Below are positions 11,652-17,216 of a stretch of DNA of 44,724 bases, one piece after another. Each line of letters starts with the position of its first letter. Position 1 is the first letter of the stretch. Below the pieces are notes generated by a model. That model did no database searches. It was not told the origin of the DNA and saw nothing but the letters and a program-made list of their open reading frames with translations. The translations under genes were made by a program, and so were the position numbers. The stretch comes from a phage, in the NCBI GenBank assembly GCA_025471175.1, contig GCA_025471175.1_4338.1. One strand, given 5' to 3'.

Positions 11652-11777
11652 ATGAAGCCACTTCCGTGGTACGCGGATGAGTACCGCGCCGGGTACAGAC
11701 ATGTGTGGATTTGTCGTGATTGTATGAAAATAAGATTAAGCGAAACGAAGGCACTGGATTTAAGGAAAAAGAAATGA
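11652..11777 (+). CDS. possible small leader ORF (41 aa)
   Basis: ATG ORF whose TGA overlaps the polymerase ATG (ATGA); no clear SD. Confidence 0.25.
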   Translation: MKPLPWYADEYRAGYRHVWICRDCMKIRLSETKALDLRKKK

Positions 11778-14014
11778 GCTACTTATACCTGGACTTTGAA
11801 ACATTCTCCGAAGCCGATTTGAAGAAAGTTGGCGCCTACGCTTACGCCGAACATCCAACTACCGAAGTGCTAATCTGTACATATGCTTTTGACGACGAGC
11901 CTGTACAGGTATGGGACTGCACCGACGGCAGCGACATGCCGGGTGATTTGCACCGCGCACTGCGCCGTCTGGTGAAGCCGAACAGCCGCATTAAGATGGT
12001 GTGGCATAACGGCTCAATGTTCGACCGCCTCATCATGAAGCACTGCTGGGGATTTGATATTCCTGTAAGTAGCACCATCGACACGATGATTTGGGCGTTT
12101 CGCCACGCTCTGCCTGGCTCACTTGATGCATTGTGCGAAGTGCTGGGCGTATCTGCGGACAATGCAAAAGATAAACGCGGCAAGGCGCTTATTCAGCGTT
12201 TCGCTAAACCGACGCCGAAGAACTACAAAATCCGCCGCTACACCGCAGAAACACACCCGGACGAGTGGGCACTGTTCATTAAGTACGCCGTGAGCGACAT
12301 CACTGCGATGCGTGAAGTCTTCCATAAGCTGCCGCGTTGGGGTAACTCCGAGTTCGAGGACCGTGTACTGGAACTGGACCAGTTAATCAACGACCGCGGG
12401 TTTAAGGTTGACGTCGCACTGGCAGAAGCCGCAATTGAAGCCGTGGAGAAACACAAGGCACAGCTACAGGAAGAAGCCCAACGTAAATACGGCGGCTCAC
12501 TTACTGGTAAAGACTTCCTTCCGATTCTGCGTGAACTAGCACCGGCGCACCGAATCCACAATGCGCAGAAGTCAACGCTGAATGACCTGCTGGCGGATGA
12601 TGATTTGCCAGACGATGCCCGCACGATTATCGAAATGCGCCTCGGGGCCGCGTCCACGGCGTCAACGAAATATAACCCGCTGCTGTTGGGCCGCTCGTCG
12701 GACGACCGCCGCCGGGGTTGCATCCAGTATGGAGGGGCCAAGCGTACGTTACGGTTCGCGGGTAAAGGCTTCCAGCCACAGAACCTGGCGCGAGGGTACT
12801 ATCACGACGACCCGAAGAACGAAAAGAAGAAAGTACGTTATGACTGGATGTCAGAGAAGGACTGGTGGAGAGTAACACACCCATTGTCTCACGGAATCGA
12901 CCTGTTGTTAAAAGGCCGTGCGCATCGCCGTTTTGATGTGGCCAAGCTAACGGCATCGACGGTGCGCAGCTGCATAATACCGGAAGCAGGGTATAAGTTT
13001 GTCGTTGCCGACTACTCTAACGTTGAAGGCCGAGGGCTTGCGTGGCTGGCGGGTGAAGACGATTTAATAGAAGTATTTGTAAACGGGGTTGATGTGTACA
13101 AGAAACTCGCATCAACCGTGTTCAACGTTAGCTATGACGACGTAACAAAGGACCAAAGACAAATAGCCAAAGCAATGGTTCTGGGCCTCGGCTACGCGGG
13201 GGGTGTCGGTGCTTTCGTCACGTTTGCTAAAAACTTAGGTCTTGATTTGAATGATATGACACGCACTTTAGACGGAACTTTCCCGGACCATATTTGGGCC
13301 ACTACCGCACGCGGTTACGAGTGGGCACGTATCCAGGAGGCCAAGCGGCCGCCACGTCCTGGTGAAAAGGATGACCGACCATCATATATTCTTGATAAGA
13401 AAGTGTGGCGTACCTGTGACGCTTTAAAGCGTATGTACCGAGAAGCTAATCCTGCAATAGTCCAATTCTGGCGAGATATTGAAGACGCGGCAATGGCAGC
13501 TATCCGCAATCCTGGTAAAGAGTTCACCGCAGGGCCGCGGGGAGTTAAGTTTTCGCGCAACGTAGAAACAGACAACAACGGCAACAAAGTCGCGGGTTGG
13601 TGGTTGCGCATGACGTTGCCGTCTGGACGCGTTATGTCTTACCCAGGCGTCGGATTGAGTGTATCGAAAGAGACAGACGAAGATGGAAAGGTGTCTACTA
13701 ACGTGCGCATCAAGTACCAGGGCGAAAATCAGTTAACCCGTCAGTGGGGCTTTCAGTACACCTATTCCGGTAAACTGGTGGAAAACTGCACGCAGGCGCT
13801 GTGCCGTGATTTGCTGGCTAATGCGCTGCTGAACGTCGAAGCAAACGGCTACCCGATTGTGCTTCATGTTCACGATGAGATTATCTGCGAGACACCAGAT
13901 ACGCCGGAATACAATGTCGCAGAGCTTGAGCGATTGATGTGCGAATTGCCGGAATGGGCGGAGGGTTTCCCTCTTGTAGCGGAAGGTGCGGAGTTAAAAC
14001 GCTATGCTAAGTAA
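11774..14014 (+). CDS. family A DNA polymerase with 3'-5' exonuclease domain
   Basis: ORF track 11720..14014; ATG at 11774 has AAGGA RBS; LYLDFETFS exo motif; ADYSNVEGRGLA (motif A-like), RQIAKAMVLGLGYAGG (motif B-like), HVHDEI (motif C). Confidence 0.9.
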   Translation: MSYLYLDFETFSEADLKKVGAYAYAEHPTTEVLICTYAFDDEPVQVWDCTDGSDMPGDLHRALRRLVKPNSRIKMVWHNGSMFDRLIMKHCWGFDIPVSSTIDTMIWAFRHALPGSLDALCEVLGVSADNAKDKRGKALIQRFAKPTPKNYKIRRYTAETHPDEWALFIKYAVSDITAMREVFHKLPRWGNSEFEDRVLELDQLINDRGFKVDVALAEAAIEAVEKHKAQLQEEAQRKYGGSLTGKDFLPILRELAPAHRIHNAQKSTLNDLLADDDLPDDARTIIEMRLGAASTASTKYNPLLLGRSSDDRRRGCIQYGGAKRTLRFAGKGFQPQNLARGYYHDDPKNEKKKVRYDWMSEKDWWRVTHPLSHGIDLLLKGRAHRRFDVAKLTASTVRSCIIPEAGYKFVVADYSNVEGRGLAWLAGEDDLIEVFVNGVDVYKKLASTVFNVSYDDVTKDQRQIAKAMVLGLGYAGGVGAFVTFAKNLGLDLNDMTRTLDGTFPDHIWATTARGYEWARIQEAKRPPRPGEKDDRPSYILDKKVWRTCDALKRMYREANPAIVQFWRDIEDAAMAAIRNPGKEFTAGPRGVKFSRNVETDNNGNKVAGWWLRMTLPSGRVMSYPGVGLSVSKETDEDGKVSTNVRIKYQGENQLTRQWGFQYTYSGKLVENCTQALCRDLLANALLNVEANGYPIVLHVHDEIICETPDTPEYNVAELERLMCELPEWAEGFPLVAEGAELKRYAK

Positions 14015-14221: not shown

Positions 14222-14370
14222 CAATGTTTGTATTTTGGACGACAGTAACCATGCTCGCACTGTTACTCGGCGCGGGAATAGCCGCGATGTTCTGTTACGG
14301 TCTGTTCTTTAAGTTTGTCGGTGTTGCCGTTCTCGGTGGGGCTTTCCTTACCTGGATGTTGCGGTCATGA
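14218..14370 (+). CDS. possible small membrane protein (50 aa)
   Basis: Hydrophobic; stop overlaps VRR-NUC ATG. Confidence 0.3.
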   Translation: MTMFVFWTTVTMLALLLGAGIAAMFCYGLFFKFVGVAVLGGAFLTWMLRS

Positions 14371-14651
14371 CTAAAGAGGGCCGCGTACAGAAATACGCAA
14401 AAGAGCGATTCGAGGCCATCGGCGGCCTCGTTCGTAAACTTTCCTACGAGGGGCGCTCGGGTGCCCCCGACCTGCTGGTAATTCTCCCTGGCGGCATCGT
14501 CTGGTTCGTCGAGGTGAAGAAAGACGAAAACGCGAAGCCGGGCCCCCACCAGCTACGAGAGCACGAGCGGATGCGTAAACGTGGTGCAAATGTTTTTGTC
14601 GTTGGGTCGTTTAAACAGGTTGACGACCTAATAGCGAACTATTATAGTTAG
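14367..14651 (+). CDS. VRR-NUC domain nuclease
   Basis: 94 aa; GAPDLLVILPGGIVWFVEVK fits the VRR-NUC PD-(D/E)XK pattern. Confidence 0.6.
   Translation: MTKEGRVQKYAKERFEAIGGLVRKLSYEGRSGAPDLLVILPGGIVWFVEVKKDENAKPGPHQLREHERMRKRGANVFVVGSFKQVDDLIANYYS
14620..14648 (+). promoter_or_regulatory. sigma70-like promoter with AATAG-N4-CTATT repeat
   Basis: TTGACG-N17-TATAGT; spacer acctAATAGcgaaCTATta; overlaps 3' end of VRR-NUC gene. Confidence 0.5.
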
Positions 14652-14681: not shown

Positions 14682-14873
14682 ATGAAACACGAATATGACC
14701 GCAAACCAGCACGTGACATCGTACCGGGCGACATGATTTTCAACGTTAAGACCCGCCAGCCTGTTGCCGTTGATACGGTGTTCGTCGAGTCGAATGGTAA
14801 ACTGGTTATCGAAGATGCGACCGGTAACGTTACGGCGTTCGGGCGTAAAGAGCTGGTGCTGGTGGCGAAATGA
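14682..14873 (+). CDS. hypothetical protein (63 aa)
   Basis: ORF track; downstream of promoter 14620-14648. Confidence 0.45.
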   Translation: MKHEYDRKPARDIVPGDMIFNVKTRQPVAVDTVFVESNGKLVIEDATGNVTAFGRKELVLVAK

Positions 14874-15799
14874 ACTATTACAATGAGTGGGATAAAGGCG
14901 CAGCCGCGTGGCTGCGTGAATTAATAAAACAGGGTCACATACCTTTTGGAGTTGTAGATGAAAGAAGCGTTACAGAAGTTAAGCCAGAAGACCTCGACGG
15001 GTTCACCCAGTGTCATTTTTTCGCTGGTATTGGCGGCTGGCCTCTCGCGCTCAGACTTGCGGGAGTTTCGGAAGATACGCCTATCTGGACGGGAAGCCCG
15101 CCTTGCCAACCGTTTAGCGCGGCAGGAAAGCAACTCGGACAGTTCGACCCGAGACACCTCGCACCTGTGTTCCTCGACCTCATCAGCGAGTGCAGCCCTC
15201 CAGTCCTCTTTGGGGAACAGGTTGCGCCAGCAATTGCAAAATCGTGGATGTGCGATTTACAAGCTCATCTGGAAGGAGAAGACTACGCCGTCGGGTTTGC
15301 TGTACTCCCAGCTTGTAGCATCGGTGCACCGCACAAACGTGACAGACTTTTCTTCGGCGCGTACAACCTGGCCCACACCGGCGGTATCACTGATAACAAA
15401 CGACGTGAACATGCGCAGCACGGACGGCAGGACGAAACCGAACAAACTGGGATGGGCCGCTGCGATGGTGACTTGGCCTACACCGACAGCGAACGACTAC
15501 AGGGGGAGTGGGGAGACAGTGATTCGCAAGGACGGGAAGGACAGGACATTCGACAAGCTGGACTACTCGACGGAGCAGGGGCCGAAAATAACACAACCTA
15601 TTCGCATCACGGCTTCTGGTCAGATGCTGACTGGCTCGGATGCCGGGATGGAAAATTCAGGCCAGTTGAATCCGGCACATTCCCGCTGGCTAATGGGATA
15701 CCCGCCAGAGTGGGACGATTGCGCGGTTACGGCAATGCCATCGTCCCGCAAGTAGCTGCTGAATTTATAAAGGCATTCATGGGGGCGGTAGATGAGTAA
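14870..15799 (+). CDS. DNA (cytosine-5)-methyltransferase
   Basis: FAGIGGW (motif I), [12 protein letters not shown] (motif IV PCQ), LFGEQV (ENV-like motif VI with N to Q), HKRDRLFF (motif VIII), GYGNAIV (motif X). Confidence 0.75.
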
Positions 15800-17216
15800 G
15801 TTTCAAAGGCGTGAATACCAGAAGCTAATGACTTCGTTCATGTTGAAACACCCTCGCTGTAATATTTGGGCTTCGATGGGTGCGGGCAAAAGTTCCGCAA
15901 CGATGTGGGTACTCAACCGCCTGTTTCGCAACGGGCAACTTACAGAAGAGGACCGCGTGTTAATCCTAGCCCCGTTACGTGTTGCGTCCGGCACGTGGCC
16001 CGCAGAACAAACTAAGTGGGGTTTCCCGTGCCTGAGTGTCGTAGATGCAACCGGTTCAGAGAAGCGCCGCATCGCGGCGCTGGAGTCGGACGCTAACGTG
16101 GTGTGCACCAACTACGAAGTTATCGAGTGGCTGATTGACTACTACGGCAAAGACGACTGGCCTTTTACGGTTATCGTTGCCGATGAAAGCACGAAGCTGA
16201 AATCATTCCGTAGCCGTTCAGGTGGAAGCAAGCGCGCAAAGGCGCTAAGTAAAGTTGCGTTCGGTAAGGTTAAGCGTTTTATCAACCTGACCGGTACGCC
16301 GTCACCTAACGGCCTCAAGGACTTGTGGGGGCAGAACTGGTTTATCGACGCTGGCGAGCGCCTCGGTTCTTCATACACTGCGTTCACCGACCGGTGGTTT
16401 AACTCGGTGCAGGAAGGTAAATCGGCTATGGCGCGAAGGTATCGGGTACGCCCGGGCGCGGATAATGAGATTCATCAGAGGATGAAAGACATTAGCCTGA
16501 CGATTGACGCCGCCGAGTGGTTTGGTTGTGAAGCACCTATTATCGTGCCGGTGGAAATTGACCTGCCGAAGAAAGCGCGTCAGGCGTACATAGATATGGA
16601 GGAGAAGCTATTCGCAGAACTGGAAAGTGGGGAAGTTGAAGCGGCTAACGCCGCGGCGAAGACGTCGAAGTGCTTGCAGATTGCATCTGGTGCCGTATAT
16701 GTGTCAGGGCCGGACGGAGAAGCAACGAAAGACTGGGAGAAAGTGCACGACACGAAGCTGGACGCGCTGGAGTCCATTGTTGAAGAGTTGCAGGGTGCGC
16801 CGTTACTGGTGGCCTATCAGTTCAAGCATGAGCTTGAGCGCATCCTGAAACGTTTCCCGCAGGCACAGGCGTTTGCCAAAGGGGCCAAGGGTAATAAGCA
16901 GATGGAAGCGTGGAACCGCGGTGAAATCGAGATTTTGTGCGTGCATCCCGCATCAGCCGGCCATGGTTTGAATTTACAGGACGGCGGCCATCATCTGGCG
17001 TTCATCTCGCAAGGCTGGAACCTTGAGCACTATTTGCAGGTCGTGGAGCGTATAGGTCCGGTCCGCCAGAAACAGGCAGGCCACGAACGACCGGTGTTCC
17101 TTTATCACATCGTTGCTAAAGACACGCTGGACGAGGTTGTTGCCGCGCGTACCGACGAGAAGAAAACGGTGCAGGAAGAGTTGCTTAATTACATGAAGAG
17201 ACGAGGTAAGAAATGA
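15792..17216 (+). CDS. SNF2-family helicase
   Basis: Walker A ASMGAGKSSAT, DEST box, C-terminal helicase motifs. Confidence 0.75.
   Translation: MSKFQRREYQKLMTSFMLKHPRCNIWASMGAGKSSATMWVLNRLFRNGQLTEEDRVLILAPLRVASGTWPAEQTKWGFPCLSVVDATGSEKRRIAALESDANVVCTNYEVIEWLIDYYGKDDWPFTVIVADESTKLKSFRSRSGGSKRAKALSKVAFGKVKRFINLTGTPSPNGLKDLWGQNWFIDAGERLGSSYTAFTDRWFNSVQEGKSAMARRYRVRPGADNEIHQRMKDISLTIDAAEWFGCEAPIIVPVEIDLPKKARQAYIDMEEKLFAELESGEVEAANAAAKTSKCLQIASGAVYVSGPDGEATKDWEKVHDTKLDALESIVEELQGAPLLVAYQFKHELERILKRFPQAQAFAKGAKGNKQMEAWNRGEIEILCVHPASAGHGLNLQDGGHHLAFISQGWNLEHYLQVVERIGPVRQKQAGHERPVFLYHIVAKDTLDEVVAARTDEKKTVQEELLNYMKRRGKK

Follow-up and report, generated by a model that had tools for sequence, protein, structure and literature searches.

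A Conserved Reading Frame Nested in a Phage C5-Cytosine Methyltransferase Gene Probably Encodes a Partner Subunit

Two Open Reading Frames at One Locus

The window analyzed in this study is the whole 44,724-nucleotide (nt) phage contig GCA_025471175.1_4338.1 (NCBI GenBank assembly GCA_025471175.1). An open reading frame (ORF) at 14870–15799 on the plus strand runs from ATG to TAA and encodes 309 amino acids (aa), the alpha-like catalytic chain of a C5-cytosine methyltransferase (MTase). This ORF is called frame A here. A second ORF (frame B, 14958–15755, 265 aa) lies entirely inside it in the +1 frame of the same strand and encodes a beta-like chain; all features described below for the two frames are likewise on the plus strand. 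The two frames are both conserved and open, and the zones in which each is under purifying selection complement one another and overlap in part. We consider it likely that the locus encodes, in two overlapping frames, a two-subunit orphan phage C5-MTase of the M.EcoHK31I type.

The Catalytic Chain Encoded by Frame A

The product of frame A passed the Pfam model PF00145 with 59.3 bits against a cut-off of 22, the match being limited to residues 72–166, and it matched the PHROG family phrog_363 "DNA methyltransferase" from end to end (1.3e-85). Alignment to M.HhaI with hhalign covered motif I through motif VIII (probability 97.9%, E = 6.5e-13). These three matches bear out the identity as a C5-cytosine MTase, which an earlier reading of this DNA made without database searches (the sequence-only reading) had proposed. 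The score with TIGR00675 was 37.5 bits, under its cut-off of 100.65. An AlphaFold model of frame A was built with a 69-sequence alignment. The predicted local distance difference test score (pLDDT) was approximately 90 in most blocks of residues 1–170, with a dip to approximately 49 at residues 80–86. Foldseek matched this model to the catalytic domains of M.HhaI, M.HaeIII, and DNMT1 with a probability of 1.0. The top Foldseek match was the DNA cytosine C5-carboxymethyltransferase 8yf3, with 19% identity and marginally above M.HaeIII/M.HhaI.

The S-adenosylmethionine (AdoMet)-binding loop of motif I (FAGIGG) is located at 15020–15037 (residues 51–56), where F51, G53, and G55 are invariant. Motif IV (PCQ) is located at 15101–15109 (residues 78–80) and contains the catalytic cysteine C79; P78, C79, and Q80 are all invariant. 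Motif VIII (HKRDR, 15332–15346, residues 155–159) aligned to QKRER of M.HhaI, with R157 and R159 invariant. Motif X (GNAIV, 15731–15745, residues 288–292; G288, N289, A290, and I291 invariant) starts a confident C-terminal helix, in which residues 293–308 had a pLDDT of approximately 90. The presence of these four motifs, predicted from the sequence alone, was therefore confirmed, with the key residues invariant. The same holds for motif VI, which had been read as GEQV rather than ENV. It lies at 15212–15223 (residues 115–118) and aligned to MENV of M.HhaI. Every member of the frame-A family keeps the catalytic Glu and has Gln in place of the Asn of ENV. Since G115-E116-Q117-V118 is invariant across the family, GEQV is a family trait and not a local oddity.

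Frame A is conserved at residues 1–165 and 250–300, with an unconstrained linker between them. The linker (15374–15610, residues ~169–247) was previously described as a short, low-complexity variable region. It is free of stops, unalignable among relatives, and predicted to be disordered (pLDDT ~30), with an amino-acid entropy of approximately 3 bits, and it evolves neutrally in frame A, with a ratio of non-synonymous to synonymous polymorphism (pN/pS) of 1.23. It is thus not a target-recognition region. We refer to it as filler; selection over this stretch acts in frame B and not in frame A. The combination of a target-recognition domain (TRD) and motif IX that canonical enzymes carry between motifs VIII and X is missing from the frame-A chain, and a motif IX-like sequence that fits the canonical consensus was found only in frame B. 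The picture of a compact, self-contained enzyme was therefore not supported.

The motifs of frame A also depart from the canonical order I-II-III-IV. The N-terminal segment (14882–14968) contains a motif II-like NEWD (14882–14893) and a motif III-like VDERS (14954–14968), and it precedes motif I. In phmmer, YNEWDK of frame A aligned to SNEWDK of M.HhaI. The start of frame A, with GVVDERSV, aligned to motifs II–III of M.HhaI (VYSNEWDKYAQEVY...EGDITQV), yet it stands ahead of motif I, and the hhalign alignment to M.HhaI showed a 35-residue gap in frame A exactly at HhaI motifs II–III. Three canonical-order profiles aligned from frame-A residues 4–6. N5, G27, and D30 were invariant in both alignments, and Y4 and E6 were invariant in one of them, with at least 90% conservation in the other. 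AlphaFold modelled the segment as strand-helix-strand, with a pLDDT of approximately 90 for the strands E2–5 and E27–30. From the sequence and the predicted secondary structure, we infer that the motif order is II-III-I-IV. This order is not among the 5-methylcytosine (m5C) topologies of a recent MTase topology classification.

The Nested Chain Encoded by Frame B

A likely ribosome-binding site and start codon for frame B are located at 14948–14960, with GGAG at 14948–14951 and ATG at 14958–14960, on the conserved G-V-V-D-E codons of frame A. The ATG lies approximately 88 nt downstream of the alpha start, and the GGAG lies 6 nt upstream of the ATG. In most relatives, the frame-B ATG falls within frame-A residues 26–40. 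The first 84 residues (14958–15209) form a leader that shows no amino-acid constraint (pN/pS 1.36), is predicted to be disordered, and is kept open, with stops depleted. The pLDDT of residues 11–70 was 44–54, and the second codon position was the most variable. In phage N15, frame B starts near frame-A residue 92, just ahead of the constrained part, so the leader is probably dispensable.

The constrained part of frame B begins with a predicted helix and beta-hairpin (15183–15323, residues 76–122, pLDDT 71–87), which contains ...ASVHRT and overlaps motifs VI–VIII of frame A. W105, K106, T110, and P111 are nearly invariant. It is followed by the WPTP repeat region (15369–15485), with WPTP at 15369–15380 and 15474–15485, which is a candidate target-recognition part; the WPTP repeats may be target-recognition modules. 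The segment LNP....WLMGYPPEW (15666–15713) resembles motif IX and lies in the second zone where both frames are constrained. L237, P239, W244, and W252 are invariant there, and the segment is both the most conserved part of frame B and the most conserved DNA in the gene. When the frame-B profile was aligned to M.HhaI with hhalign, the sole match was motif IX 273–290 (KLHPRECARVMGYPDSYK), over 18 columns with a non-significant E of 0.16. This match suggests a motif IX identity for the segment. Modelled alone with AlphaFold, frame B was only moderately confident beyond residue 122, and the chain as a whole formed no standalone globule.

The family consensus of frame B reads GSTLYxLTWKxxxTPSGR...LRASAxRTS, then two or three GWPTPxAxD modules, and then a conserved tail. 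Frame B matched phrog_1008, a different PHROG "DNA methyltransferase" family (3e-60). It has 5,452 relatives in a database clustered at 90%, and clustering at 50% gave 10,206 representatives. Searches of Pfam, NCBIfam, PADLOC, and PDB sequences with the single sequence and with a 120-member profile gave no match. Foldseek with the frame-B model returned only noise, because the model has low confidence. The records of phages K1ind2 and K1ind3 annotate frame B as "Mte8-like protein" or as a second "DNA methyltransferase" beside the methylase; the origin of the name "Mte8" was not found in the literature searched.

The number of WPTP modules varies. The window has two, the family consensus three, and an E. 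coli prophage copy four (three WPTP and one WVTP). Length differences among close relatives (−105, +117, +9 nt, etc.) were always multiples of 3. The variable module number may be related to target specificity.

Frame B was also found next to other enzymes in the same frame. In Edwardsiella phage eiAU-183 (L012, 1498–2922), it runs without a stop into a downstream Dam (N6-adenine methylase) gene. One database protein (P0140) combines a frame-B-like N-terminus with PF05869 Dam, and another (P0139) is a fusion to a DUF2800/PD-(D/E)XK nuclease. These fusions may reflect a portable DNA-targeting module or accidental read-throughs. A single-chain canonical ancestor, in which frame B would be fused in frame to a C5-MTase, was sought among the long frame-B relatives and was not found; the fusion partners were Dam or the DUF2800 nuclease. 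The idea that WPTP TRDs occur in frame in ordinary C5-MTases found no support here, and it probably stems from frame-B ORFs annotated as methyltransferases.

Co-Occurrence of the Two Frames

Searches with tblastn found both products in 16 very different phages, and frame B was always in the +1 frame relative to frame A. The set comprised N15 and phages of Xanthomonas, Pseudomonas, Rhodobacter, Vibrio, Burkholderia, Klebsiella, Edwardsiella, Ralstonia, and a cyanobacterium. The identity of frame B across distant phages was 30–45%. Another 160 loci were taken from genome and viral collections, selected by frame-A peptide patterns only. A frame-B homologue was present in the +1 frame of 177/177 loci. 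Over these loci, the +1 frame was open across a median of 92% (minimum 72%) of the frame-A gene, and the +2 control frame was open across a median of 21%, with a median of 14 stops. The hosts include Proteobacteria, Acidobacteria, Verrucomicrobia, Planctomycetes, Nitrospira, Dehalococcoidia, and a candidate-phylum bacterium, and viral contigs are also represented. Because the hosts span many bacterial phyla, the nested arrangement is old.

In Pseudomonas phage PMG1 (L010, 1157–2045), frame A is broken near its N-terminus, with residues 3–34 and 29–304 in different frames, and the intact frame B is the annotated coding sequence. The break may stem from an error in sequencing, from decay of alpha, or from a variant start.

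A family member linked to a restriction enzyme was also sought. In E. coli genomes, the search returned only "DNA cytosine methyltransferase" genes, and the one locus examined was a prophage copy. On plasmids, the matches were mostly phage-plasmid-sized replicons or Ralstonia megaplasmids. A match in Klebsiella aerogenes was a fragmented prophage and not EaeI.

Selection and Stop Depletion in the Two Frames

Nucleotide entropy by codon position was calculated from codon-threaded alignments of 172 distinct sequences. The pN/pS was calculated by the Nei–Gojobori method; a first comparison with relatives of 55–70% identity was too saturated and was redone with nine close Kagunavirus sequences. 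The two measures agree on the zones of constraint.

Four zones were distinguished. At 14960–15225, which covers motifs I–VI of frame A and the leader of frame B, the pN/pS was 0.13 in frame A and 1.36 in frame B, and only frame A is constrained. At 15230–15345, which covers motifs VI–VIII of frame A and the helix and hairpin of frame B, the pN/pS was 0.28 in frame A and 0.52 in frame B, against 4.7 in the +2 control. Both frames are constrained in this zone, and the entropy is flattened across codon positions. The pattern is reversed at 15370–15620, where the filler of frame A had a pN/pS of 1.23 and the WPTP region of frame B had 0.30, and only frame B is constrained. Both frames are again constrained at 15625–15735, with a pN/pS of 0.19 for the C-terminal part of frame A and 0.42 for the motif IX-like part of frame B. 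The nucleotide entropy of the motif IX-like zone was 0.36–0.65 at all three codon positions.

Stops are depleted in both frames where the amino acids are free to vary. In the frame-B leader, 0.20 stops per locus were observed in the +1 frame and 1.56 were expected from synonymous shuffles of frame A, an eight-fold depletion. The upstream limit of the open +1 frame lies at frame-A residues ~19–38 in most loci. In the frame-A filler, 172/172 loci had 0 stops, compared with an expected number of approximately 1.97 per locus on the assumption that only frame B matters. The depletion in both stretches indicates that both frames are read end to end. Together with the separate start of frame B and the length changes in multiples of 3, the stop depletion fits two separately initiated full-length polypeptides.

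Comparison with Known Enzymes

M.EcoHK31I of E. coli recognizes YGGCCR. Published descriptions of this enzyme place its beta chain wholly inside the alpha gene in a different frame; alpha carries motifs I–VIII and X, beta carries motif IX, and both are needed for activity (Lee, Kam & Shaw 1995, as described in PMC2836561 and PMC3404938). One of these accounts reports that the first ~42 residues of beta are dispensable in vitro, that internal Met codons can be used as beta starts, and that the product is m5C (PMC2836561). Compared by published layout, the phage locus likewise has beta nested in the alpha ORF in another frame, and both alphas carry motifs I–VIII and X. The dispensable N-terminus of the M.EcoHK31I beta has an evolutionary proxy in the phage beta leader, which is evolutionarily unconstrained and whose starts vary among relatives. 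The two systems differ in the place of target recognition. The TRD of M.EcoHK31I is assigned to alpha, whereas the phage alpha has neutral filler at that position and the selected WPTP modules are in beta. Therefore, any TRD function of the phage enzyme should lie in beta or in the short conserved C-terminal segment of alpha.

M.AquI of Agmenellum quadruplicatum (CYCGRG) has motifs I–VIII on alpha and motifs IX–X on beta (Karreman & de Waard 1990, as described in PMC3404938). It is like the proposed phage enzyme in being a natural two-polypeptide C5-MTase split within the variable region. Unlike in M.AquI, motif X of the phage enzyme is on alpha, and frame B ends before motif X and is nested over 798 nt.

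Frame A shares with M.HhaI and M.HaeIII (PF00145) a homologous core of motifs I–VIII, PCQ, the motif VI Glu, the motif VIII arginines, and the GN of motif X. The large domain of M.HhaI consists of the N-terminal core and the motif X helix. Unlike in these enzymes, motifs II–III of the phage protein stand ahead of motif I, motif VI is GEQV, and a disordered linker occupies the place of the TRD. The clearest motif IX-like sequence is also on the nested beta rather than on the same chain; the conserved C-terminal segment of alpha might act similarly.

The locus resembles long same-strand overlapping genes of viruses in that approximately 800 nt are read in two frames and synonymous change is depressed in the zones of dual constraint. 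It differs from overprinted viral genes in that frame B is neither young nor lineage-restricted and the constraint is mostly partitioned between the frames.

Proposed Two-Subunit Enzyme and Alternative Explanations

We propose that alpha would form the catalytic large domain, with the AdoMet-binding motifs, the catalytic Cys in PCQ, GEQV, motif VIII, and the motif X helix. Its two conserved halves would be tied together by the disordered linker of ~80 residues, whose sequence is not selected. Beta would be made from its own ATG and GGAG, and would present, after a dispensable leader, the helix and hairpin, the two WPTP modules, and the motif IX-like helix. It may thereby supply the small (target-recognition) domain that canonical enzymes encode between motifs VIII and X. 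Alpha and beta would then assemble on DNA and methylate cytosine at C5. The assembly of alpha and beta, the supply of motif IX and most of the DNA recognition by beta, the m5C product, and the target site are all putative. By analogy with M.EcoHK31I, the 309-aa product probably needs its frame-B partner.

Several points weigh against this proposal. The translation of frame B in this phage is predicted from the sequence, and the contact between alpha and beta is putative. The motif IX match of frame B is not statistically significant (E = 0.16, 18 columns), and frame B has no hidden Markov model or fold match to any known methyltransferase part. The likeness to M.EcoHK31I is an analogy of layout; that enzyme belongs to a restriction-modification system, whereas the phage gene is an orphan in a replication module. 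The proposal does not account for the open state of the unconstrained beta leader of ~84 codons. Frame A also keeps a conserved segment (W250...RPVE.G.FPL..G..RVG.LRGYGN) near its C-terminus, which might be a minimal recognition or motif IX-like element with which alpha works alone.

In the most probable of the alternatives, frame A alone would be a complete, compact C5-MTase, as in the sequence-only reading, and frame B a real but unrelated overprinted gene, for example one with a DNA-binding or anti-defence function. Frame A does have every motif of the catalytic domain as well as its own conserved C-terminal segment, frame B has no significant similarity to any methyltransferase part, and its in-frame fusions to Dam and the DUF2800 nuclease mean that it could be a portable DNA-binding module. 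We regard this explanation as unlikely. Overprinted genes are typically young, whereas frame B accompanies frame A in 177/177 loci across phyla and therefore matches it in age and spread. The most conserved segment of frame B reads as motif IX, the only match that hhalign found. Alpha is mostly unconstrained between motifs VIII and X, where approximately 40 conserved residues remain for DNA recognition, and the only experimentally studied enzyme with such a layout, M.EcoHK31I, needs both chains, as its published description states (PMC2836561).

It is very improbable that the two frames are joined into one canonical-looking chain by two programmed frameshifts, a +1 shift from A to B after motif VIII and a −1 shift from B to A before motif X. 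Splicing the frames conceptually does give a near-canonical order, with LNP....WLMGYPPEW followed by the motif X region within approximately 10 codons. However, frameshifting would need neither a stop-free filler in frame A, as seen in 172/172 loci, nor the separate ATG and Shine–Dalgarno sequence of frame B. Stops are also depleted in the approximately 85 codons of frame B that precede any plausible site of a shift, and the shift zones have no fixed position. The beta of M.EcoHK31I, according to the published account, starts independently at internal Met codons (PMC2836561).

Similarly, there is little chance that the enzyme installs another C5 adduct instead of 5-methylcytosine and that GEQV and the architecture reflect a different chemistry. 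The top rank of the carboxymethyltransferase 8yf3 in Foldseek and a motif VI that differs from ENV in every member would agree with such a chemistry. However, 8yf3 is only marginally ahead of M.HaeIII/M.HhaI at 19% identity, the catalytic Cys, the motif VI Glu, and the motif VIII arginines are standard, and M.EcoHK31I with the same layout is reported to make m5C (PMC2836561). Finally, the explanation that frame B is a non-coding by-product of the codon composition of frame A, propagated by annotators and gene callers, might be suggested by its N-terminal third without amino-acid constraint and by PHROG and database families that could stem from repeated mis-calls, but it is refuted for practical purposes by purifying selection on frame B over the stretch in which frame A evolves neutrally (pN/pS 0.30 vs. 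1.23), 30–45% identity across distant phages, an open +1 frame in all 177 loci against a median of 14 stops in the +2 frame, stop depletion beyond synonymous shuffles, and invariant WPTP and LNP...W motifs.

Genomic Surroundings

The MTase locus lies inside the replication module, as the sequence-only reading stated, and is adjoined by the genes of a family-A DNA polymerase (11720–14014), a VRR-NUC protein (14367–14651), and an SNF2 helicase (15792–17216). No restriction enzyme was found next to the methyltransferase gene, whose neighbours are the DNA polymerase, the VRR-NUC protein, a 63-aa ORF, and the SNF2 helicase; the methyltransferase is therefore called an orphan. Self-methylation of phage DNA against host restriction would be a reasonable role for it. 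The window is approximately 92% identical to Kagunavirus phages such as K1ind2.

The 63-aa ORF (14682–14873) ends within the start of frame A in an ATGA overlap (14870–14873), and its product had no match in Pfam or PADLOC. The ATG of the SNF2 helicase gene (15792) shares the final 8 nt of frame A (15792–15799). These two overlaps suggest that the 63-aa ORF, frame A, and the SNF2 helicase gene form a translationally coupled string.

GATC is nearly missing from the window (1–44724), with 18 strand-counts (9 sites) where a maximal-order Markov model predicts approximately 312 (ratio 0.06). Other words depleted over the same range were CTAG (0.44), CGGCCG and GGGCCC (0.21), GCCGGC (0.34), and CCWGG (0.60). 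The scarcity of GATC suggests strong selection against GATC-targeting host systems, separate from the C5-MTase. Depletion of YGGCCR was considered as a clue to specificity and was dropped, because other GC-rich palindromes were depleted to the same degree.

Annotation and Novelty

C5-MTases with a beta chain encoded in another frame inside alpha have been on record since 1995, and both ORFs are annotated in the nearest phage relatives. The literature searched gave no account of how widespread the arrangement is, of how selection is divided between the frames, of the alpha filler, or of the permuted N-terminus. No earlier generalization of the nested arrangement to phages was found in the literature on overlapping genes, on motif IX in an alternative frame, or on Kagunavirus, in the GeneTack frame-transition survey, or in the MTase topology classification.

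The annotation of the locus varies among phages. Only frame A is annotated in Golestan, fEg-Eco06, and N15, only frame B in vB_VIPECOMC04, EcoPhCCP1, PhiXhv-2, Cr-LKS3, and PMG1, and both in K1ind2 and K1ind3. All close Kagunavirus relatives that were checked have the two frames intact. In the E. coli ECCTRSRTH03 prophage (L177, 2833–4047), the Prokaryotic Genome Annotation Pipeline (PGAP) presents an intact frame-A ORF of 1,215 nt as a pair of pseudogene fragments labelled "incomplete, partial", apparently because no protein model aligns to the long filler; in frame B, this filler encodes the three WPTP modules and the WVTP variant.

Beyond the single locus, a wider proposal can be made, about which we are almost evenly divided and lean slightly to doubt. 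Frame B would be the true target-recognition (small) domain of a very large and ancient phage and prophage family of C5-MTases, with obligate same-strand dual coding over approximately 700–1,000 nt. M.EcoHK31I would then be no curiosity but the first recorded case of a long overlapping-gene arrangement that ranks among the most widespread in bacteria and phages, alpha would have a previously unclassified permuted topology, and the number of WPTP modules would set the specificity.

Implications

Neither Pfam nor NCBIfam has a model for the nested frame-B protein family, and pipelines treat the locus inconsistently. Codon-optimized synthesis of the 309-aa gene would destroy the nested partner and probably yield an inactive enzyme, and heterologous expression from the native DNA would work only because the nested second gene comes along. 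Targeted split methyltransferases are described as being derived from natural alpha/beta C5-MTases (PMC2836561), and thousands of variants are available in this family. The family is also a large natural data set on two proteins that share one DNA, with only two short zones that are truly constrained in both frames. The layout of M.EcoHK31I, usually cited as a rare exception, is suggested by our results to be the rule for this family across bacterial phyla and phages.

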